Source: an uncultured virus (IMG/VR IMGVR_UViG_3300030117_006168) (lineage: Duplodnaviria > Heunggongvirae > Uroviricota > Caudoviricetes). Taken from it: 20,000 nucleotides of DNA. How positions within the stretch are numbered: position 1 is the stretch's first letter; each line of letters opens with the position of its first letter. Below are positions 2,535 to 15,237 of this stretch, one piece after another. The notes beneath the pieces are model-generated. The model had not been told where the DNA came from and searched no databases. It saw only the letters and a program-made list of their open reading frames with translations. The stretch is taken from IMG/VR virus record IMGVR_UViG_3300030117_006168; one strand, given 5' to 3'. Made by a program: the position numbers and the translations under genes.

Positions 2535-4046
2535 ATGCAACCTGATATTTTATTTGTACACCCAAACGCATCTGAAAAAATTTATCAAGGATTATCATCT
2601 AAAAACTCTGCCATAGAACCACCTATTTGGGCCGCTATGTTGGCAAAAAGTGTTTTGTCACTAGGTTATAGAGCTGAGTTACTTGATGCTGAAGTAGAAG
2701 GTTTAGACTACACAGAAACAGCAAAAAGAATTTTTTCCTATAAACCAAGAATAGTTTGTTTTGTTGTTTACGGTCAGCAACCTAGTGCATCATCTCAAAA
2801 CATGGAAGGTGCTACAGAGGTAGCCAGATTATTTAAACTTTTTGAACCTGAAGGCTTTGTACTATTTGTCGGTGGCCACGTTTCAGCTTTACCAAGTGAA
2901 ACTTTACAAAAACACACTTTCATAGATGCAGTTTGTCAAAATGAAGGTGTTTACACTATACATAATTTATTAAAAACAAATTTATCAACAGATCATTTAA
3001 AAGACGTTGATGGTTTATGTTATAGATTAGATAATATAATTTTAACTAATAAACCATCACCAATTGTACCTAAAAGTGATTTAGAAACTGTGTTACCTGG
3101 AATGGCATGGGAGTTATTACCATCTTTAAAAAAATATAGAACAGCTGGTTGGCACTCTTGGTCGAATAACACAGAGAAACAACCTTTTGCAGCTTTATAT
3201 ACAAGTCTTGGTTGTCCTTATAGGTGTTCATTTTGTATGATAAACATCATTAATAGAACAAAACCTGGATTTAATATAACAAGTGAAGATAGTAATATAT
3301 TTCGTTGGTGGTCTCCAGAATTTATTATAAAACAATTTGATTACATTGCAGAACAAGGTGTAAAAAACGTAAAAATAGCTGATGAGTTATTTGTTTTAAA
3401 CCCTAATCACTTTATGAAAATATGTGATTTAATTATTGAAAGAGGGTATGATTTTAATATTTGGGCTTATTCAAGAGTCGATACTTGTAAACCAAAATAC
3501 TTAGAAAAATTAAAACAGGCAGGTGTTAATTGGTTAGGTCTTGGTATAGAAAATCCTAATAATGTGTTAAGAAAAGAAATACATAAAGGTGGTTTTAAAG
3601 ATGTAAAAGTTTTAGATTTAATTAATACAATTCGTGAGGCTGGTATAAATGTGGGCGGTAATTATATATTTGGATTACCTTATGATACACATGAAACAAT
3701 GCAAGATACTTTAGATTTTGCTTTAGATAATCCAACAGAGATGGCTAATTTTTATTCTGCTATGGCCTATCCAGGAAGTCCACTATATAAAGAGGCGGTA
3801 AAAAATAAAATTGATCTACCAGAAACATACTCAGGTTATAGTCAACATTCTTATGAAACACATAACTTAGCAAATGATCATTTGAAGGCATCTGAAATTT
3901 TAGAGTTTAGAGATTATTCTTGGGATACTTATCATTCACATCCAGGATATTTAAGTCTGATGCGATATAAGTTTGGTCAAAAAGCTGTAGATGAATTAAA
4001 TAGCACAAAGAAAGTTAAATTGAAACGTAAATTATTAGGAGACTAA
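2535..4046 (+). CDS. Cobalamin-binding radical SAM enzyme (class B methyltransferase-like)
   Basis: N-terminal Rossmann-like B12-binding region (EPP.., FVGGHVSALP, EG) followed by TSLGCPYRCSFC (CxxxCxxC), IADELF, LGIEN, YIFGLP and YPGSPLY. Confidence 0.9.
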   Translation: MQPDILFVHPNASEKIYQGLSSKNSAIEPPIWAAMLAKSVLSLGYRAELLDAEVEGLDYTETAKRIFSYKPRIVCFVVYGQQPSASSQNMEGATEVARLFKLFEPEGFVLFVGGHVSALPSETLQKHTFIDAVCQNEGVYTIHNLLKTNLSTDHLKDVDGLCYRLDNIILTNKPSPIVPKSDLETVLPGMAWELLPSLKKYRTAGWHSWSNNTEKQPFAALYTSLGCPYRCSFCMINIINRTKPGFNITSEDSNIFRWWSPEFIIKQFDYIAEQGVKNVKIADELFVLNPNHFMKICDLIIERGYDFNIWAYSRVDTCKPKYLEKLKQAGVNWLGLGIENPNNVLRKEIHKGGFKDVKVLDLINTIREAGINVGGNYIFGLPYDTHETMQDTLDFALDNPTEMANFYSAMAYPGSPLYKEAVKNKIDLPETYSGYSQHSYETHNLANDHLKASEILEFRDYSWDTYHSHPGYLSLMRYKFGQKAVDELNSTKKVKLKRKLLGD

Positions 4047-4047
4047 T

Positions 4048-4581
4048 ATGATGAAGCCAAAGGCATTAATTATAACATGGGAAAGCTTTCAAGATCAAGA
4101 AGTTGTTTATCCTTATTATAGATTAAAAGAAGAAACAGATGATGTAAAGATCATATCTAATGTAAAAGGTAGATTTCATGGTATTATGGGTGTAAATATG
4201 TTCTCTCATGATACACTAGATAATTTACCAATTTATTCAGATTATGACTTTTTAGTTTTACCTGGAGGTGTTAAGTCGTTAGAAAAACTAAGACAAGAAG
4301 AAAATGTTTTAGAGTTTATTCGTCAATGGGATGTAGATGGTAAATTGATAGCTTCAACTTGTCATGGTGCTCAGTTAATGATATCCGCTGAAATTACAGA
4401 GGGTAGAGAAATAAGTGGTTATTATAGTATTAGAGATGATATAAACAATTCTGGTGCAATATACGTTGATGCACCTGCCGTTATTGATGATAATATTGTA
4501 TCTTCACCACACTATGATTATATGGGTGATTGGATGAAAGCTGCAATTACATTATATTATGCAAATTCTGAGAGAGGGTAA
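4048..4581 (+). CDS. DJ-1/PfpI family protein (class I glutamine amidotransferase-like fold)
   Basis: FQDQEVVYP, YDFLVLPGG, nucleophile elbow STCHGAQ, and VIDDNIVSS. Confidence 0.9.
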   Translation: MMKPKALIITWESFQDQEVVYPYYRLKEETDDVKIISNVKGRFHGIMGVNMFSHDTLDNLPIYSDYDFLVLPGGVKSLEKLRQEENVLEFIRQWDVDGKLIASTCHGAQLMISAEITEGREISGYYSIRDDINNSGAIYVDAPAVIDDNIVSSPHYDYMGDWMKAAITLYYANSERG

Positions 4582-4587
4582 ATTATA

Positions 4588-5562
4588 ATGATAATAACTA
4601 AAACACCTTATAGACTTTCTTTGTTTGGTGGTGGCACAGATTACTCTGATTGGTACGCTTATAATAAATCAAAGATTATATCAGCTGCAATAGATCATCA
4701 TTGTTTTTTAAGTGTGAAAGACTTACCACCTTATTTTAGTTATAAGTATAGAATATCTTATTCAAGATTAGAAGCTGTAAATTCAATTGATGACATAGAT
4801 CACCCATCTGTAAGAAATTGTTTAAAACATTTAGATATAGAACAAAGTTTGACAATTACACATGATGGTGAAATGCCGGCAAAATCTGGTGTAGGCTCTA
4901 GTTCTGCTTTTACTGTTGGTTTATTAAATGCTTTATTTCATAAAAAAGGTTTTGATCTTACACCAAGAGATTTAGCTGAAAAAGCAATTTTTGTAGAACA
5001 AGTATTAAATCATGAAAGTGTTGGTATTCAAGATCAAATTACAGCTGCATATGGTGGTATAAATTTAATTACAGCAGGTTTAGGTAATGATTGGGAAGTA
5101 GAGCCAGTCAAAATATCAGATGAATATCTAAAAGAAATGGAAGATCATATACTTTTAGGTTTTTCTGGTAAGAGTAGAATTGCAGAAGTACAGGCAAGAA
5201 AACAAGTAGAAAGAATTGGTAAAAATAAAAATTATTTAAATGAAATATCAGATGTAGCAAATGTGGGTATACGATATATTATAAATGAAGAAGAAATAGA
5301 AAAAGTGGCTAGTATGTTAAAAGCCACATGGAATTTTAAAAAACATTTAACAGATGATTTGACGAATAAAAAATTAGATTATATATTTGACCTATCAGAA
5401 GAGAATGGGTCATTAGGTGGAAAATTAATGGGTGCTGGAGGTGGTGGTTTTTTTGTATTTGTTGTGCCGCCAGAAAAACAAGAAAAATTTAAACAAGCAC
5501 TCAGATGTATAAAAGTTTGGGTGCCTTTCAAGCTTAGTAAAGGAGGAAGTCAAGTCATATGA
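4588..5562 (+). CDS. GHMP kinase, HddA-like (D-glycero-D-manno-heptose-7-phosphate kinase family)
   Basis: TPYRLSLFGGGTD, PAKSGVGSSSAF, GIQDQ..AAYGG and GGKLMGAGGGGF. Confidence 0.9.
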   Translation: MIITKTPYRLSLFGGGTDYSDWYAYNKSKIISAAIDHHCFLSVKDLPPYFSYKYRISYSRLEAVNSIDDIDHPSVRNCLKHLDIEQSLTITHDGEMPAKSGVGSSSAFTVGLLNALFHKKGFDLTPRDLAEKAIFVEQVLNHESVGIQDQITAAYGGINLITAGLGNDWEVEPVKISDEYLKEMEDHILLGFSGKSRIAEVQARKQVERIGKNKNYLNEISDVANVGIRYIINEEEIEKVASMLKATWNFKKHLTDDLTNKKLDYIFDLSEENGSLGGKLMGAGGGGFFVFVVPPEKQEKFKQALRCIKVWVPFKLSKGGSQVI

Positions 5563-5741
5563 CCGCTCAAGAACTGTACAGAGATGTTTTATTACAAGAG
5601 GCTAAAAGAATTAGAGAATTTATTAGTAAAAATAAATTAGAATTAGGCACCAATAAATTAATAATCACGGCAAATGTTCTAGAAGAAAGAGCTGAACAGC
5701 TTTTAAATGAGATTACTTCAAACGGAACACCGCTATCATAA
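5559..5741 (+). CDS. Small hypothetical protein (60 aa)
   Basis: ATGA overlap with the kinase stop and an upstream AGGAGG. Helical composition. Confidence 0.6.
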   Translation: MTAQELYRDVLLQEAKRIREFISKNKLELGTNKLIITANVLEERAEQLLNEITSNGTPLS

Positions 5742-5763
5742 CAGTTTGTCAACCCTTTGTCAA
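5735..5763 (-). promoter_or_regulatory. Antisense sigma70-type promoter
   Basis: Minus strand reads TTGACA (5763-5758), 17 nt, then TATGAT (5740-5735), with the TGn extended -10. Confidence 0.7.
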
Positions 5764-5771
5764 GGAATATA

Positions 5772-6371
5772 ATGCACAATTACCAAGAAAATTTTGAAAA
5801 AAAAGGATATGTTTTTGTAAAAGATTTTATACCTAAAGATGTTGCAAAATATTTATTTGAGTATTTAAAATATTCAAGTCATGCTTTGGTTTTGTCAAGA
5901 CAGGCAGTTGGTGGAGATGAACAAGTTCCAGATTCTTTTGCACCAAGACATGGTGATATGGCCTTTCAGGCATTAATGAAACAAATGCGACCTACAATGG
6001 AGATTATTACCGGGTTGGACTTGTGTCCTACTTACACTTATGTTAGACTATATCGTGAAGGTAATATTTTAAAGAAACATAAAGATAGACCTTCATGTGA
6101 AGTATCAGTAACAGTAAAATTATCGGATACAAAAAAAGGTGATTACAATTGGCCCATTTATATGGATGGTACTGAATGTATTTTAGAAGATGGTGATGCA
6201 GTAATTTATCGAGGATGTGATTATGAGCATTGGCGTGAACCCTGTGAAGGTGGTAAAAATTATCGTTTAGGTCAAGCTTTCTTACACTACATTGATAAAA
6301 GTGGCCCTTATTATCCTCAATATGCTTATGATCAAAAACCATATGCCAAATTATTTGAAAGTGAATTATGA
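5772..6371 (+). CDS. 2OG-Fe(II) oxygenase superfamily protein
   Basis: PTYTYVRLY..G..LKKHKDRPSCEVS (HxD), GDAVIYRG..EHWRE and QAFLHY. ATG at 5772 with AAGGA RBS at 5762-5766. Confidence 0.85.
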   Translation: MHNYQENFEKKGYVFVKDFIPKDVAKYLFEYLKYSSHALVLSRQAVGGDEQVPDSFAPRHGDMAFQALMKQMRPTMEIITGLDLCPTYTYVRLYREGNILKKHKDRPSCEVSVTVKLSDTKKGDYNWPIYMDGTECILEDGDAVIYRGCDYEHWREPCEGGKNYRLGQAFLHYIDKSGPYYPQYAYDQKPYAKLFESEL

Positions 6372-6886
6372 GTAAAGAATCAAAACATTACGTTAAAAAT
6401 GCAGACTTTTTAGAAGCTTTAATAAAATATAAAGAAGCTTGTGAGATTGCTAAAGAAGAAAACAAAGAAGAACCTCCTATACCAAATTATATTGGTGAAT
6501 GTTTTTTTAAGATAGCTGAACATCTATCAAGAAAACCTAACTTCATATCATATTCATTTCGTGATGAAATGATTTCAGATGGTATAGAAAATTGCCTAAT
6601 GTATTTTCGTAATTTTAATCCAGAGAAAAGTAAAAACCCATTTGCATATTTTACTCAAATAATTTATTATGCCTTTTTAAGAAGAATTACGAAAGAGAAA
6701 AAACAATTATATGTAAAATACAAGGCAACAGAACAAATGGGTATAATAGAAGAACATGAAGTATTGCCTGATGGAAGCTTGAAACCTTTTGAACTCTATG
6801 ATAATATAGCAGAGTTTATTCAAAACTTTGAAGAAAGCAAAAAGAAAAAGCAAGAAAAGAAAAAAGGCCTTGAAAAATTTTTATGA
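6368..6886 (+). CDS. gp55: T4-like late transcription sigma factor gp55
   Basis: HYVKNADFL, YIGECFFKIAEHLS.KPNF..Y..RDEMISDGIENC and NPFAYFTQIIYYAFLRRI.KEKKQ. Confidence 0.96.
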   Translation: MSKESKHYVKNADFLEALIKYKEACEIAKEENKEEPPIPNYIGECFFKIAEHLSRKPNFISYSFRDEMISDGIENCLMYFRNFNPEKSKNPFAYFTQIIYYAFLRRITKEKKQLYVKYKATEQMGIIEEHEVLPDGSLKPFELYDNIAEFIQNFEESKKKKQEKKKGLEKFL

Positions 6887-7959
6887 AGCTTTGTATATTA
6901 GGTGATACCCATTTTGGTGCGAGAGGTGACTCGGTAGATTTTCATAACTTTTTTGAAAAGTTTTATGAAAACACTTTCTTTCCATATCTAATAGAAAATA
7001 ATATTGATACAGTATTTCAGCTAGGCGATCTTTTTGATCGTAGAAAATATATTAATTTTAATTCACTATATCTGTGTCGTAAATATTTTTTTGATAAACT
7101 AAGAGATAATAATATAAAGATGTACACTCTTTTAGGTAATCATGATATATCATATAAAAATACTTTAAAGGTAAATTCATCAGAGCTTCTTCTAAAAGAG
7201 TATAAAAATATAACTGTATATAATGATTATGCTCAGGTAGAATTTGATGGTATGAAAGTTGATGTTATACCTTGGATTTGTAAAGAGAATGAAAAACAAA
7301 TATTTGAGTCTATGAAAACAAGCTCTTCAGATATATGTTTTGGTCATTTTGATATAGATGGTTTTGAAATGTATAGAGGTAATAAATGTTTGGGTGGTTT
7401 AAATAGAAATAAATTTGACAAGTATGATATGGTTTTAACAGGGCATTTTCATCATAGATCAAATGATGGCCAGATTTTTTATGTTGGCACACCTTGTGAA
7501 ATGATGTGGTCAGATTATAATGATACAAAAGGTTTTCATATACTAGATACTGAAACGAGAGAAATGGAATTTATTGCCAACCCATATCAAATGTTTCATA
7601 GAATAAGATATGATGATTCTCAAACAAACTTTGATCATTGGAAAAAATTTAACTATAACAAAACAAAAGATTCTTATGTAAAGGTTGTTGTTTTAAATAA
7701 ACAAAATCCATTTCTTTTTGATACAGTTATAGATAATTTTTATAAAGCTGAGGTTGCTGATATACAAATTGTTGAGGATTTTAGTGATATGAATTTTGGA
7801 GTTGATAAAGATATTATAAATCAGGCAGAAGATACTATAACAATTTTGTCAAAATATATTGATGATAATTCTAATGGTCTGGTTGAGGATCCAAATAAAT
7901 TAAAAAATTTAATGAAAGAGCTTTACGTTGATGCTATGAATGAGGAGCGTACAGAATGA
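6883..7959 (+). CDS. gp47: Recombination endonuclease subunit gp47 (Mre11/SbcD-like)
   Basis: Metallophosphoesterase motifs GDTHFG, LGDLFD, GNHD, FGH and GHFH. Follows gp55. Confidence 0.95.
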   Translation: MKLCILGDTHFGARGDSVDFHNFFEKFYENTFFPYLIENNIDTVFQLGDLFDRRKYINFNSLYLCRKYFFDKLRDNNIKMYTLLGNHDISYKNTLKVNSSELLLKEYKNITVYNDYAQVEFDGMKVDVIPWICKENEKQIFESMKTSSSDICFGHFDIDGFEMYRGNKCLGGLNRNKFDKYDMVLTGHFHHRSNDGQIFYVGTPCEMMWSDYNDTKGFHILDTETREMEFIANPYQMFHRIRYDDSQTNFDHWKKFNYNKTKDSYVKVVVLNKQNPFLFDTVIDNFYKAEVADIQIVEDFSDMNFGVDKDIINQAEDTITILSKYIDDNSNGLVEDPNKLKNLMKELYVDAMNEERTE

Positions 7960-8675
7960 GTCATAGTTATAAAAGTTTATATAACTTTCCAACCGAAAGA
8001 TTAAGAAAATTTTATACTTATTGTTATTGGTCTGGAGGTTTTAATAAAGATGAAATGAAAAAGCTTCTTGCTCAGATGAATGAGTATAAACTTGAAAGAG
8101 GTAATACCATTCAATTAAATTCAAAAAATAAAGCAAATACAACAAATACAACTGCAAAATATATAAGTGATGGTAATACAGTTATACAAAAAACACCAAC
8201 AGCTAGTCAAAGTCCAAACGAGGGTGTAAGAAAATCTGATGTTGCGTTTATATATAGAGATGAAAAAACAGCTTGGATTTTTGAAAGATTAAATTTTATA
8301 ATAGAATCTTTAAATACCCAGTTTTATAATTTTGATGTAAATGGTTATGAGATGATGCAATATACTGTTTATCACGATTATGAAAAAGGTAAATATGATT
8401 TTCATCAAGATACAATTATGGGTCATGCTTTACCTGATGATATGTATGAAACTAGAAAATTATCGGTTACATTTTTATTGAGTGAACCTGGTGTAGACTT
8501 TGAAGGTGGTGAGTTTCAAATTAATACTGGTGAAGAAAGAAACTCTGAATCAATAGTAATGAAAAAAGGTGATGTAATTGTGTTTCCATCATTTTTAATA
8601 CATAGAGTGAAACCAGTTACAAAAGGTACTAGAAAATCAATCGTTGTTTGGGTCGTAGGGCCAAAATTCAGATGA
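7956..8675 (+). CDS. 2OG-Fe(II) oxygenase (prolyl-4-hydroxylase/PKHD-like)
   Basis: RKSDV, QYTVY, YDFHQD (HxD), RKLS, FEGGEF and FPSFLIHRVKPVTKGTRKSIVVW. ATGA overlaps at both ends. Confidence 0.9.
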   Translation: MSHSYKSLYNFPTERLRKFYTYCYWSGGFNKDEMKKLLAQMNEYKLERGNTIQLNSKNKANTTNTTAKYISDGNTVIQKTPTASQSPNEGVRKSDVAFIYRDEKTAWIFERLNFIIESLNTQFYNFDVNGYEMMQYTVYHDYEKGKYDFHQDTIMGHALPDDMYETRKLSVTFLLSEPGVDFEGGEFQINTGEERNSESIVMKKGDVIVFPSFLIHRVKPVTKGTRKSIVVWVVGPKFR

Positions 8676-11430: not shown

Positions 11431-12710
11431 AAGTATATAAGTTTGACCCAAAAGATGATGTAGAAACACAATGGAAAAAGTGGAGTGAGTCTGACATAGA
11501 ATTTGATAATGTATCAGATGAAGAACTGAAAGAAAACATTGTGAAAGACCTTTCATATGTTTCACAAATGGATGTGAGAGAGTACACACTATATCAAAAA
11601 TATTGTGAAGTGAAACAAAGATACCCAACAATCACAGTAAATGATTTATGGGAGGGTGAACGCCAAGTATTAAAAGATGAGAAACAAAGAAAAGCTTTAG
11701 TAGAAGTAAAGAACAATATTTGGCAACCAAAAACAAATGAAGATTACCTAGAGTTAGAACCTGAAATGATTTACACAGGTAATAAAGAGGGTATGCCTGA
11801 AGTTTGGAATGCCATTAGAACATTTACATCTACAATGAGAAATAACTCTAATATAGGCCGTAATTTAGCTTATATTATTCGTGATAGAAAAACAAAAAAA
11901 TATCTAGGTGTCATCTGTATTACAGGTGATTTTATTGATCTTACACCAAGAGATAACTTTATTGGTTGGGATCGTAATTATAAAACAGAAAGTGGTATGT
12001 TAAATCATACAGCAATTGGTTCTACGATTGTACCATTACAACCTCTCGGTTTCAATTATGTTGGCGGTAAACTTCTAGCATTACTTTGTTTATCAGAGGA
12101 AATACAATCTCAATGGAAAAAAAATTATGGTGATAATTTAGTAAGTGTGACAACAACATCACTTTATGGTAAAACAAAAAAAGGTGGTCTATCACAATAT
12201 GATAATTTAAAATATTGGAAACCAATGGGCTTTACAAGCGGTTCTGTTTCATACGAACCAACAAAGAAAACGATATATCAAATTAGACATTGGTTGATGA
12301 AAAATCACCCACGAAAATATTTTGAATGGTATGTTGCCAAAAGACCAAATGGTCAACAATTGAAAAGAGATCATAGGCATAGATCGTATGCTTTCACATA
12401 TAGTAAATTAGGTAATATACCAAAAGAAATAATGAAATCTGATCATGCAAGAGGCGTTTACTTTTGCCCCTTATATGATAAAAGTTGTGCATACTTGAGA
12501 GGTGAAGCCAAGATAGAAGATTTGACAAAAGCATTTGATAATTCTACCGAAGCTTTATCTGAATTGTGGAAATATAAGTATGCAAAACCTAGAATCAAAC
12601 AATTGGTTAAAAAAGGTAGAGATTCAAAAGAAACTCTTTTTTATGATGATTTAATATACAAAACATGGGACGAGGTAAAAACTTCATATTTGCCCCAAAT
12701 TGGTAGATAA
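11427..12710 (+). CDS. DUF4338/DruA-like protein (possibly GNAT-related fold)
   Basis: IGRNLAYIIRD..TKKYLGVI, RDNFIGW, PLGFNYVGGKLLALL, TTTSLYG..SQY and W..MGFTSG match my recollection of DUF4338 motifs. GTGA overlap start. Confidence 0.7.
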   Translation: MKVYKFDPKDDVETQWKKWSESDIEFDNVSDEELKENIVKDLSYVSQMDVREYTLYQKYCEVKQRYPTITVNDLWEGERQVLKDEKQRKALVEVKNNIWQPKTNEDYLELEPEMIYTGNKEGMPEVWNAIRTFTSTMRNNSNIGRNLAYIIRDRKTKKYLGVICITGDFIDLTPRDNFIGWDRNYKTESGMLNHTAIGSTIVPLQPLGFNYVGGKLLALLCLSEEIQSQWKKNYGDNLVSVTTTSLYGKTKKGGLSQYDNLKYWKPMGFTSGSVSYEPTKKTIYQIRHWLMKNHPRKYFEWYVAKRPNGQQLKRDHRHRSYAFTYSKLGNIPKEIMKSDHARGVYFCPLYDKSCAYLRGEAKIEDLTKAFDNSTEALSELWKYKYAKPRIKQLVKKGRDSKETLFYDDLIYKTWDEVKTSYLPQIGR

Positions 12711-12713
12711 CTG

Positions 12714-12722
12714 TGTTATAGT
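12714..12722 (+). promoter_or_regulatory. Possible extended -10 promoter for the tRNA-like RNA
   Basis: TG-T-TATAGT ending 13 nt before the RNA 5' end. No well-spaced -35. Confidence 0.4.
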
Positions 12723-12735
12723 ATTTACAGAATAT

Positions 12736-12801
12736 GCGGTGGGTCGTAAGACAATCAGGCTCCAACCTGTAAGCGTGGTGTAACTCCACGACACCGCTCC
12801 A
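12736..12801 (+). tRNA. Non-canonical tRNA-Gly(TCC)-like RNA, 66 nt, encoded CCA
   Basis: Acceptor GCGGTG/CACCGC + T + CCA. Mini D-arm GTC-GTAA-GAC. Anticodon arm CAGG-CTCCAA-CCTG. T-arm CGTGG-TGTAACT-CCACG. GC-rich island in AT-rich DNA. Confidence 0.8.
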
Positions 12802-12802
12802 A

Positions 12803-12870
12803 TGTTGCAAAAATACAACAAAAATAGTGCTTGACAATTCGGGTTGGTGCTGATAGGATGGTATCATAAA
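12803..12870 (+). promoter_or_regulatory. Early sigma70-type promoter, copy 1, with upstream palindrome
   Basis: TGTTG-CAAAAATA-CAACA (12803-12820), then TTGACA (12831-12836), 17 nt, TAGGAT (12854-12859) with TGn. Confidence 0.85.
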
Positions 12871-12891
12871 GTAAATTATTTGGGAGTTTTA

Positions 12892-15237
12892 ATGTCAATA
12901 GTAGAACAAAAATCACAACTAGCAAAATTACTTGCTACAGAAAATGTTACTGTACAACATAAAAAAGTTGATACAGCGTCTTTCAATCCTATGACAAGAG
13001 TTCTTACTTGCCCTATCTGGAAAGATATGAGTCCAGAGCTTTATGATTTATTAATGAGTCATGAAGTTGGCCATGCTTTAAATACTCCAGCAGATGGCTG
13101 GCATGGCGCTGTATCTAATAAAGGCAAAAACTACAAAGGTTTTCTTAATGTTATTGAAGATGCTCGCATTGAGAAAAAAATCAAAAGAAAATATCCAGGT
13201 CTTGTAAAATCTTATGTTAAAGGTTTTAATGAGATTATGGGTATGAATCTATTTGGTATTCAAGATGTTGAAGAAATAAATGAATTACCTTTTATTGATA
13301 GAATCAATATTTTTACAAAGAGTTCTTACTCTATGCCTATTCAATTCTCTAATGAAGAGTTATCAATTATTGAAGAGATTAAAAATCTTGAATCATGGAA
13401 TGATGTTGTTGCTATGACTGATAGATTATGGGATCAGGCAGTAGAAGAAGAGAAAGAAACTTTTACTATGTTTGATTATACGGACGTAGAAGAAGATAAT
13501 GATGAAGATTCAGCTGGCAAAACTGAGCAAACTGGTTTTTTCCCTAATGATGATTCGGATAATGAGAATGAATCTGAAGAATCAGTAAGTCAATCTGAAG
13601 CTACAGAGGAAGATACTGAAGAAAATGAAGAAACTGAATCTGGTGCTGATGATTCAGCTGCTGAAGATGGCGGTGATGATGAAAAAGACTCAAATGTAGA
13701 TGCTGAGTCAGCTCATGGCGATGTTGATGGTGACGAAGTTTACGAACCATCTTGTGAAACTGATGAGTCATTTAGAAATAATGAAAATAAATTACTTGAT
13801 GGTAAAGCTGTAGAAAATGTTTATATTAATATACCAAAGCCAATATTAGATAAAATCTTAGAAGATCCTAAAGTAGTCAATAAAAGTATGACAGACCACT
13901 TCAAAGAGTTATCACAACGCAGTTTGATGTACTTTCAAAACCAGACTAATTACAGAACAAATATTGGTCCTGAAGAAGTTAAAAAACTTTTCAATCGTGG
14001 TCATGTTATGAATGAGTTTAAAAAGAAAAATGATCGTTTTATCTCATTGATGGCTAAAGACTTTGAAATGAAAAAAGCTGCCACAAAATATGCCAAGGCT
14101 AGATTATATACTTCTGGTGATATTGATATTAACAAAATTTACAAGTATAAGTTTGATGATCAAATTTTTCGTAAGTTGACAAAATTACCGAAAGGTAAAA
14201 ATCATGGTATGCTTCTTGTATTAGATTTATCTGGTTCTATGGATCGTAACATGGCTGGTTCAATTGAGCAGATTCTTATTCTTACTGCTTTTTGTAAGAA
14301 AGTTCAAATACCATTTAGAGTTTTTGGTTTCACTTCTACACCGCTTAATAGTGATGTAAAAGAATATGGTGATACTCCGACTCCTAAATGGCATTTAGCT
14401 GAGAACACTCTTGATCTTCATGACGATTGGGCGTTAAGAGAATTTATTAATTCAGATATGGGAGCAGCTGCCTATAAAGAGGCTTTTGAGAATTTACTGA
14501 TGGGTAAATCTGCTTGGAGTTATAACAAGCTTCATGTTAATTATCAGAATATTCCAAGAGCATTACATTTAAGTAGCACACCATTGAATGAATCTATCGT
14601 TGCTTTAGGTTCAATTGTACCAGAGTTTAGACAAAAACATAATTTAGATATTGTGAATACTATTTTTGTACATGATGGTGATGCTAATCATACTGGTGGT
14701 TATTATGACTGGGATGAGGAAAAAAATGATTGGCAATTTAATTACTTTGATCGAAATGAAAATGTAATTTTACAAGATATTAAGCTTCGCTGGGCATCAT
14801 TAGCTGTTTATCATGATAGAAATAATTGTATAACTAACGATTTATTAGAATGGTTTAAAGTTAAAACTGGTTCTCAAGTTTTTGGTTTCTTTGTTTCAAC
14901 TAAAATGAGTGATGCAATTAATTATAGATATGTACCGAAAAATGCTCTCAAAGATCGTAAGTTTTATGTTAATTGGGAAATAAAAGAAGAGGCTAAAAAA
15001 CTTGGGAGAAAGCAAAAGTTTTTAGAATCATATAATAGAGGCTTTGATCAGTTTTACATTTTGAATGATAGTAATAAGCTTACTACTGATGGTGAAGAGT
15101 TTGAGTTTGAGGTTGCTGATGAAAACAAGATTAGTACCAGAAGCCTTGCGAGTCAATTCACTAAAATGAATAAATCTAGAGAGGTCAATCGCATACTGGC
15201 AACGAAATTTGTAGAAAAAATTGCGGTAAAGTTGTAA
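12892..15237 (+). CDS. Metallopeptidase-like / acidic linker / VWA domain protein (phage 'CobT-like' partner of a MoxR ATPase)
   Basis: HEVGH (HExxH), NVIEDARIE, a long Asp/Glu-rich linker, MIDAS DLSGSM, TPLNE and VHDG. ATG 12892 follows GGGAG RBS; the ORF-track start at 12844 lies inside the promoter. Confidence 0.88.
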   Translation: MSIVEQKSQLAKLLATENVTVQHKKVDTASFNPMTRVLTCPIWKDMSPELYDLLMSHEVGHALNTPADGWHGAVSNKGKNYKGFLNVIEDARIEKKIKRKYPGLVKSYVKGFNEIMGMNLFGIQDVEEINELPFIDRINIFTKSSYSMPIQFSNEELSIIEEIKNLESWNDVVAMTDRLWDQAVEEEKETFTMFDYTDVEEDNDEDSAGKTEQTGFFPNDDSDNENESEESVSQSEATEEDTEENEETESGADDSAAEDGGDDEKDSNVDAESAHGDVDGDEVYEPSCETDESFRNNENKLLDGKAVENVYINIPKPILDKILEDPKVVNKSMTDHFKELSQRSLMYFQNQTNYRTNIGPEEVKKLFNRGHVMNEFKKKNDRFISLMAKDFEMKKAATKYAKARLYTSGDIDINKIYKYKFDDQIFRKLTKLPKGKNHGMLLVLDLSGSMDRNMAGSIEQILILTAFCKKVQIPFRVFGFTSTPLNSDVKEYGDTPTPKWHLAENTLDLHDDWALREFINSDMGAAAYKEAFENLLMGKSAWSYNKLHVNYQNIPRALHLSSTPLNESIVALGSIVPEFRQKHNLDIVNTIFVHDGDANHTGGYYDWDEEKNDWQFNYFDRNENVILQDIKLRWASLAVYHDRNNCITNDLLEWFKVKTGSQVFGFFVSTKMSDAINYRYVPKNALKDRKFYVNWEIKEEAKKLGRKQKFLESYNRGFDQFYILNDSNKLTTDGEEFEFEVADENKISTRSLASQFTKMNKSREVNRILATKFVEKIAVKL

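Follow-up and report, generated by a model that had tools for sequence, protein, structure and literature searches.

Dedicated nonribosomal tRNAs were stated in 2020 to be known from staphylococci only (PMC7826273). The nonproteogenic (NP) tRNA-Gly species NP1 to NP3 of Staphylococcus aureus and Staphylococcus epidermidis keep their glycine identity, carry translation-lowering traits, and exist as extra copies dedicated to the GNAT-fold transferases FmhB, FemA, and FemB, for which they are the donors (PMC7826273). In S. aureus, the tRNA-Gly species that escape elongation factor Tu (EF-Tu) are marked by a UGC or UGU T-loop triplet and by weak first T-stem pairs, i.e., A49-U65, U50-A64, and A51-U63, whereas translating tRNA-Gly has G51-C63 (PMC7826273). 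Here, we describe a 66-nt tRNA-Gly-like RNA gene in a 20,000-nt stretch of DNA, referred to as the window, from an uncultured virus of the Caudoviricetes (IMG/VR record IMGVR_UViG_3300030117_006168). Like the staphylococcal RNAs, it keeps glycine identity at the sequence level, carries traits that would lower its use in translation, namely, a UGY T loop (UGU in the window) and a weak 51-63 pair, and may be dedicated to a GNAT-fold enzyme, which for the phage RNA is a proposal. The staphylococcal tRNAs are, however, full-size, have a UCC anticodon loop, serve Fem partners, and belong to one bacterial lineage, none of which applies to the phage RNA. They remain the nearest concept for an RNA that is much more reduced, encoded by a virus, and possibly matched to a new enzymatic partner.

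The second reference point is Mom of phage Mu, a phage GNAT that transfers glycine from Gly-tRNA-Gly to the N6 of adenine in double-stranded DNA (PMC13219725). All three glycine isoacceptors of Escherichia coli can serve Mom, whereas Gly-tRNA-Ala cannot, and the enzyme seems to recognize the acceptor end of the tRNA (PMC13219725). It uses host tRNAs, with no phage tRNA named in the accessible text, and its authors consider drawing on the translation machinery potentially costly (PMC13219725). A full-text literature search that covered neither supplements nor subscription journals returned no report of the RNA family described below, nor of any phage tRNA that serves specifically an enzyme like Mom or DruA, and the accessible parts of PMC7029224 and PMC13219725 do not describe such an RNA.

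Other tRNA mimics are more distant. The aminoacylatable tRNA-like structures of plant RNA viruses, specific for valine, histidine, or tyrosine, are also viral mimics that keep synthetase identity and do not decode. These are cis elements, often pseudoknotted, with which RNA genomes end at the 3' side, and none is known to be glycine specific, whereas the window RNA is a free-standing intergenic gene of a T4-like double-stranded DNA phage with a plain cloverleaf. Like the phage RNA, truncated mitochondrial tRNAs and tRNA-like small RNAs such as mascRNA have a reduced D arm, lack the G18G19/psi55C56 elbow, and have a tRNA-like shape of the kind recognized by RNase P and CCA enzymes. Unlike the phage RNA, mitochondrial tRNAs still decode with 7-nt loops, and mascRNA is cut from a long nuclear transcript and has no synthetase identity set.

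A selected family of reduced tRNA-Gly-like RNAs

Our central conclusion, which we consider very probable, is that the window RNA is a selected, non-decoding tRNA-Gly-like small RNA that keeps, as judged from its sequence, the identity set of glycyl-tRNA synthetase (GlyRS). The cloverleaf emerges both as the minimum free energy structure and as the centroid, at -24.0 kcal/mol, whereas shuffled sequences average -17.2 (z = -2.49; 2 of 200 did equally well), and the coordinates and cloverleaf parts given by an earlier sequence-only reading of the locus proved exact. The acceptor helix pairs GCGGUGG with ACACCGC over seven positions (G1-C72, C2-G71, G3-C70, G4-C69, U5-A68, and G6-C67), ends in a G7.A66 mismatch, and is followed by U73 and an encoded CCA. 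Positions 8 and 9 are absent, which leaves zero nucleotides between the acceptor and D stems, and the D arm is a 3-bp hairpin, GUC-GUAA-GAC. The anticodon-like arm, UCAGG-CUCCAA-CCUGU, has a 5-position stem closed by U.U and a 6-nt loop; after a variable region of 3 nt, the T arm, CGUGG-UGUAACU-CCACG, has a perfect 5-bp stem. The G+C content of the element is 58%, against roughly 30 to 33% in the window, and its minus strand folds no better than shuffles (z = -1.06). These single-sequence statistics are modest; it is the covariation in relatives that places the structure beyond chance.

With exact and gapped patterns, the element turned up at 24 loci of viral contigs and at 22 of 66 loci of metagenomes, the latter consisting of known variants again plus one new variant. 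Chance matches of G+C-rich DNA to the two 10-mers of the scan accounted for the remaining 44, which were set aside. Among the 13 distinct variants (65 to 68 nt) obtained in this way, the anticodon-like stem is fully replaced in compensation (e.g., CAGG/CCUG by UUAC/GUAA), T-stem C-G pairs change to U-A, and one variant has G7-C66. A covariance model built from them, R1, with which all later alignments were made, gives its best score to the window RNA (90.3 bits). R1 was run on two samples that share contigs. The first, anchored on the product of the downstream gene (annotated as a peptidase in phage HTVC008M), comprised 80 loci reached through distant homologues (35 to 41% identity) together with the corresponding regions of HTVC008M and Mosig. 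These Pelagibacter phages are the nearest cultured relatives of the window (66 to 67% DNA identity over 37 to 40% of a 3.9-kb query), which itself belongs to a T4-like phage of the pelagimyophage type. This sample gave 46 matches in 42 of the 82 loci, all on the plus strand and upstream of the peptidase gene. The second sample, anchored on the DruA-like gene, consisted of the best 80 of roughly 590 DruA-positive contigs, 72 of them with enough downstream sequence, and gave 77 matches, in 68 of these 72 usable loci. Pooled, both samples provide 69 distinct relatives, 63 to 70 nt long, on contigs of uncultured T4-like phages of the pelagimyophage type. Rfam 15 does not contain the family.

Covariation was counted in the first alignment made by the model (52 rows, 45 of them distinct). 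Paired cells amount to 93.4% against 67.6% after shuffling, as read from an alignment that leans to the model's structure and with a shuffle test inflated by kinship among the sequences. Both sides change in 15 of the 20 base pairs, and all four helices covary. The covariation score is 0.639, compared with 0.150 after shuffling and 0.08 to 0.10 when pairing partners are slid by 1 to 3 columns; the slid controls, together with the variety of pair types found at a position (up to six), are the firmer indications. These RNAs are a family of 63- to 70-nt cloverleaf RNAs under purifying selection. The sequence-only reading had favored selection over decay, and the covarying stems and invariant identity nucleotides of the relatives bear it out. 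The alternative pairing of GTCGT with ACGAC that it also entertained is not kept in relatives, in which the D hairpin covaries instead.

G1-C72, C2-G71, and G3-C70 are invariant (45 of 45 rows), as is G53-C61 (44 of 44); U73 and CCA are present in all rows of the family alignments, and CC stands in the anticodon-like loop of all 69 sequences. The glycine identity determinants of bacteria are U73, G1-C72, C2-G71, C35, and C36 (PMC9976931). At the sequence level, the window RNA and its family thus carry the GlyRS identity set, as had been claimed for the window copy. The T loops mostly follow U-N-N-R-A-N-N, with U54, R57, and A58 kept and UUC not. Their triplets are UGU, UGC, UUU, and similar ones (UGU in the window and UGC in close kin); UUUAACU in 16 of 45 rows means that UGY is not universal. 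At 51-63, 62 of 69 sequences have A-U or U-A (U51-A63 in the window), and none has G-C. A non-Watson-Crick pair, mostly G.A or A.G, occupies 6-67 or 7-66 in 58 of 69 and shifts position between subgroups; it could be an adaptation of the junction, an EF-Tu antideterminant, or a mark for an enzyme.

Features on which translation depends vary freely. Of the 69 anticodon-like loops, 31 are only 4 nt long and read CCCA or CCCC; 10 have 6 nt, 13 have 7 nt, 1 has 8 nt, and 14 have 9 nt. A 4-nt loop is unable to present an anticodon, and therefore the family as a whole does not appear to decode. There is no conserved U33, although some 7-nt-loop members could be read as having UCC, CCC, or ACC anticodons. 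The D loops are of 3 to 5 nt without GG, with one exception of 8 nt. The GNRA form pointed out for the D hairpin holds for the window (GUAA), but among relatives GUAA recurs in the nearest variant only, others having GUAG, ACAG, GUUAG, CAA, or CGA. With D-loop GG and T-loop UUC kept nowhere across the family, the loss of translation features first noted in the window copy extends to its relatives. The 6-nt loop itself is no 1-nt assembly slip, since CTCCAA recurs in 6 sequence variants at 22 loci (drawn from two collections with some contigs in both), and two RNA-library contigs covering the element have zero indels within it. Roles as a decoy for anticodon nucleases or as a frameshift-promoting tRNA, both previously suggested, are disfavored because either role would call for a loop of constant geometry, and no feature of the family varies as much as the length of this loop.

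Standard tRNA models pass over these RNAs. ARAGORN at default settings reports zero tRNA genes in the 20-kb window and in 11 relatives; at relaxed thresholds it made inconsistent low-score calls on both strands, which were taken as noise. Rfam has no match for the window at gathering scores, and its tRNA model is absent even at E <= 10 from window positions 12650 to 12900 and from six relatives, where this threshold gave chance snoRNA, miRNA, and lncRNA rows only. The same model (RF00005) does detect true tRNAs in related records. Compared with a canonical tRNA, the window RNA has the 6-nt CUCCAA in place of a 7-nt anticodon loop with U33 and purine 37, and it and its family lack G18G19 in the D loop, U54-psi55-C56 in the T loop, and U8. 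Retained are the 7-bp acceptor stem, the discriminator, a 5-bp T stem ending in G53-C61, and a 7-nt T loop with U54 and A58.

Nine loci carry a second, different copy 2 to 4 nt downstream of the first (Table 1). These type-2 paralogues are 68 to 69 nt long in the nine tandem loci and 67 to 70 nt over all copies with a UGUCCA loop. Their loop, UGUCCAA or UGUCCAG, amounts to UCC with G33, and they combine a reduced D arm with the T loop UGCGAAU. A type-2-like copy stands alone in some loci (L118 and L150).

The surroundings of the RNA are those of a gene. All 79 distinct contexts have a U immediately 5' of G1 (position 12735 in the window), which is favorable for bacterial RNase P. A sigma-70 promoter with at least 9 of 12 matches and a -10 box ending 5 to 15 nt before G1 occurs in 45 of 72 first-copy contexts, and most of the remaining ones have a good -10 box alone; in relatives, the early-type promoter TTGACA-N17-TATAAT lies directly upstream of the RNA. 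On the 3' side, a hairpin follows the CCA. In the window it is without a U run, whereas in relatives it is terminator-like: 64 of 82 distinct relatives have GTTG-N6-9-CAAC no more than 150 nt downstream, some of them two or three times in succession, and several have a long stem and a T run. This hairpin is likely a terminator or a processing signal. Two RNA-library contigs, which come from two studies, extend across the element (12594 to 12874, 281 nt, depth 20; 12627 to 12849, 228 nt, depth 2.4). They are at most a weak hint of transcription that leaves ends, strand, and level aside and may reflect DNA carry-over; gaps in such coverage elsewhere in the window carry no information.

The DruA-like GNAT upstream of the RNA

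In 65 of the 68 positive loci, 22 to 72 nt separate the DruA-like stop codon from the start of the RNA; in the other three, the distance is about 547 nt. In the peptidase-anchored sample, the RNA accompanies the DruA-like gene in 38 of 40 DruA-positive metagenomic loci. One locus, L236, has a canonical tRNA-Gly(UCC) called by ARAGORN in the same slot and between the same flanks (L236:2493-2566), with a normal D loop, a CUUCCAA anticodon loop, and a TTCGATT T loop. In a FastTree phylogeny of the DruA-like proteins (midpoint root, local support values only), L236 is sister to a locus with a 63-nt RNA, with support of 100, deep in the mini-RNA clade. Because of this nested position, the canonical gene is most simply a secondary replacement, which suggests that the slot must supply a glycine-accepting RNA. 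Close relatives with a canonical tRNA here, next to a randomly degraded window copy, would have spoken against the sequence-only reading. The canonical gene does exist in L236, but the window copy is not randomly degraded, and L236 lies within the mini-RNA clade.

DUF4338 has been termed a GNAT domain (PMC10853773). Like Mom, the neighbor of the RNA would be a phage GNAT, and Mom is its best match among solved structures. An AlphaFold2 model of the 427-aa protein (predicted local distance difference test score of 85.9, predicted template modeling score of 0.82) retrieves Mu Mom (8bv8_A) with Foldseek as the top solved match in the PDB (E = 9.2e-3, probability 1.00), and 'Mom' is also the first named match in BFVD (E = 3.4e-3), both comparisons being made with a predicted fold. 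The two proteins differ in length, Mom having 241 aa, and in family, since in Pfam the neighbor matches DruA PF14236 only and Mu Mom matches PF25680; no sequence similarity between them is detectable. A sequence search of the PDB with the DruA-like protein gave nothing at E <= 1, and a full-text literature search on DruA, in which mostly the word Druantia matched, yielded nothing on its fold. A cyanophage homologue of the DruA-like protein is annotated as 'methylcarbamoylase mom' (31.9% identity over 208 aa, E = 3e-16).

DruA-like GNATs also occur in giant-virus metagenome bins (Faunusvirus, Yasminevirus, and Dasosvirus; matches of the model in BFVD, E = 1e-17 to 2e-8) and in 25 Synechococcus myophage records; in the eight of these loci that were inspected, gp44 and gp62 of the clamp loader flank the gene.

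Candidate functions and their alternatives

By analogy with Mom and the staphylococcal tRNAs, we tentatively propose, at somewhat less than an even chance for the whole chain, that the RNA is a nonribosomal glycyl carrier for the adjoining DruA-like GNAT. The gene would derive from, or be modeled on, tRNA-Gly and be reduced to the needs of a nonribosomal aminoacyl carrier. RNase P would trim the transcript at G1, and the host GlyRS would charge it with glycine through G1-C72, C2-G71, G3-C70, U73, and the loop CC. A 51-63 pair that is never G-C, a missing D/T elbow, a loop of 4 to 9 nt, and no fixed U33 would make it a poor ligand of EF-Tu that does not decode, and charging without delivery to EF-Tu or the ribosome would leave the phage a private pool of activated glycine. 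At the weakest step, the most likely consumer would be the Mom-like DruA/DUF4338 GNAT encoded directly upstream, which, as Mu Mom does, may move the glycyl group to DNA or to another acceptor. Such a private carrier would spare the small tRNA-Gly pool of a streamlined host. We infer, with moderate support, that the RNA may be the glycyl donor of this enzyme. In a fuller version, to which we give somewhat less credence, the phage would encode an orthogonal aminoacyl carrier, down to 63 nt in length with a 4-nt loop, that escapes both EF-Tu and the ribosome and forms with the enzyme a two-gene cassette for glycine-derived hypermodification of phage DNA or another macromolecule, without draining the tRNA-Gly of the host.

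Several observations weigh against the carrier proposal. GlyRS may not be able to read a CC placed within a 4-nt loop. The window's own promoter is weak, scoring 7 of 12; it has no good -35 box because that region is still coding sequence, and a simple promoter scan of the window did not list its extended -10-like motif. VIA-align also ranks Mom as the top solved match of the enzyme, but its lead over generic acetyl-CoA-dependent GNATs is about 1 Z unit, a tie by the standard of the tool, and hhalign of the DruA-like alignment against Mu Mom finds nothing (probability 0.1). Furthermore, the order pdf, DruA-like gene, RNA, and peptidase gene is complete in 63 of the 80 DruA-anchored loci, 66 of which have both the RNA and the peptidase gene, so that adjacency in 68 of 72 loci mostly reflects one inherited gene order and not 68 independent events. 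The enzyme also occurs alone. HTVC008M and Mosig carry the DruA-like gene without an RNA detectable by R1 in their whole genomes, and the DruA-positive loci L121, L128, L263, and L285 lack the RNA as well; R1 finds no RNA in five cyanomyophage genomes with a DruA-like gene, and no annotated tRNA lies beside this gene in the eight cyanomyophage loci inspected. The link between enzyme and RNA is therefore specific to a clade. Conversely, L189 has the RNA and no DruA-like gene directly upstream.

A different use of the same acceptor end would be that of a decoy or sponge for a host factor that binds tRNA-Gly there, thereby protecting or redirecting the translating tRNA-Gly pool; we consider this unlikely. 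Whether charged or uncharged, the RNA could sequester a TacT/AtaT2-type GNAT toxin, which would acetylate Gly-tRNA-Gly, a nuclease or nucleotidyltransferase toxin acting on the acceptor end, or even GlyRS. The acceptor end is invariant, and its G71 and U73 are nucleotides that TacT needs (PMC9976931). The early-type promoter also fits, and since the RNA cannot decode, an abundant decoy would be harmless to translation. However, no host toxin of this kind is known, none having been searched for, and a factor that binds the acceptor end would have no use for the loop CC that is kept in 69 of 69 sequences. A supply role accords better with the exchange for a complete canonical tRNA-Gly in L236, and a decoy would leave the tight linkage to the GNAT gene unexplained.

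That linkage is shared ground with the idea, improbable in our view, that the RNA regulates the DruA-like GNAT or serves it as a cofactor (inhibiting, timing, or scaffolding it in an antitoxin-like manner) or is the substrate of the enzyme, e.g., for acetylation of the Gly-RNA. GNATs for which aminoacyl-tRNA is the substrate and not the donor do exist (PMC13219725). Yet DruA-like genes function in many phages without the RNA, and a purely protein-binding RNA would not require the full GlyRS identity set.

The position of the RNA between two genes and the U at -1 in 79 of 79 contexts could, instead, point to a processing or punctuation signal, that is, a fold that directs RNase P or 3'-end cleavage, stabilizes, or terminates a transcript, the excised RNA having no job. 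The weakness of the window promoter makes read-through from the upstream gene plausible. We find this slightly less probable still, because most relatives have a dedicated TTGACA-N17-TATAAT promoter directly upstream, RNase P needs neither the G1C2G3/U73 set nor the loop CC, nine loci have two different tandem copies, and HTVC008M and Mosig manage with a plain hairpin at this place.

An odd decoding tRNA (frameshift promoting, doublet decoding, or resistant to anticodon nucleases) is very improbable, for the readable 7-nt loops of some members stand against 4-nt loops in 31 of 69, the 4- to 9-nt range, the lack of a conserved U33, with G33 in type-2 copies, the missing D-loop GG and T-loop UUC, and the silence of the Rfam tRNA model at E <= 10. 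A decaying tRNA-Gly pseudogene, to which the canonical gene in the L236 slot might point, has almost nothing left in its favor given that 15 of 20 pairs are compensated and the identity nucleotides invariant while the proteins diverged to 35 to 41% identity, that L236 is nested within the mini-RNA clade, and that covariation contradicts decay.

Genomic setting and implications

The element sits in a 181-nt gap between two plus-strand genes (Table 1). Two mechanical minus-strand open reading frames overlap it (12607 to 12867, 86 aa; 12755 to 12925, 56 aa); the RNA-type covariation and the all-plus-strand gene order suggest that they are not genes. The promoter of the downstream gene is conserved in relatives and marks the end of the small-RNA unit. 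The 781-aa protein encoded there matches no family in Pfam. Elsewhere, the window encodes a gp46/47-like recombination nuclease, peptide deformylase, a CobS-like AAA protein, the sliding clamp, and the clamp loader.

Table 1. Positions of the RNA gene and associated features (window coordinates unless a locus is named)
Feature	Position	Strand	Basis or remark
DruA/DUF4338-like GNAT gene, 427 aa	11427..12710	+	Pfam DruA PF14236, E = 2.1e-17
Candidate own promoter of the RNA, extended -10-like TGnTATAGT	12714..12722	+	Ends 13 nt before G1
66-nt minimal tRNA-Gly-like RNA gene	12736..12801	+	Sequence, minimum free energy cloverleaf, covariation in relatives
Hairpin TGTTG-N8-CAACA directly 3' of CCA	12803..12820	+	Sole match in the 20-kb window
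Sigma-70-type promoter TTGACA-N17-TAGGAT of the downstream gene	12831..12859	+	10/12 matches, TG before -10
Downstream 781-aa gene, 'peptidase' in HTVC008M	12892..15237	+	Context marker, outside the proposed mechanism
Type-2 copies of the RNA	L138:1555-1623, L122:919-986, L187:1578-1646, L171:930-998		Five more loci

The equivalent site of HTVC008M and Mosig has no similarity to the element. Both phages share a simple conserved hairpin, GCTGTGCGA-N-TGACGCA, at the same intergenic place (L001:4014-4036 and L002:4598-4620). HTVC008M also has an atypical tRNA-Gly-like gene between cobS and the S21 gene (record positions 91140 to 91213; L201:1501-1574), which scores 49.5 bits with RF00005, is assigned the anticodon ACC by ARAGORN, and combines the T loop AGCGUUA with G1C2G3, U73, and an encoded CCA. 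A pelagimyophage survey that relied on tRNAscan-SE only gives 0 tRNAs for this phage (PMC7029224). Odd tRNA-Gly genes of phages may thus form a wider set that includes this one.

Positions 2535 to 8675 of the window hold a run of auxiliary enzymes: a B12-binding radical SAM protein (2535 to 4046), a GHMP-family kinase (4588 to 5562), a gp47-like metallophosphoesterase (6883 to 7959), and a 2OG-Fe(II) oxygenase (7956 to 8675). The radical SAM protein and the kinase could be part of a small-molecule or nucleotide-modification pathway.

If the carrier proposal is correct, a large group of abundant uncultured aquatic phages would carry a nonribosomal tRNA far more reduced than those of staphylococci. 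Phage tRNA censuses based on tRNAscan counts (PMC7029224) overlook the family because standard finders and Rfam miss it. These RNAs constitute a natural experiment on which parts of tRNA-Gly are kept without decoding, namely, the acceptor identity set, CCA, the T arm, and the loop CC. Should it prove chargeable, a 63-nt GlyRS substrate that avoids EF-Tu would be a potential tool as an orthogonal carrier. The linkage to a Mom-like GNAT offers a testable route into the chemistry of DruA/DUF4338 proteins and, possibly, to a new phage DNA modification. If true, the cassette reading would provide the first functional clue that these enzymes, which also occur in Druantia defense and in transposases, depend on aminoacyl-tRNA.

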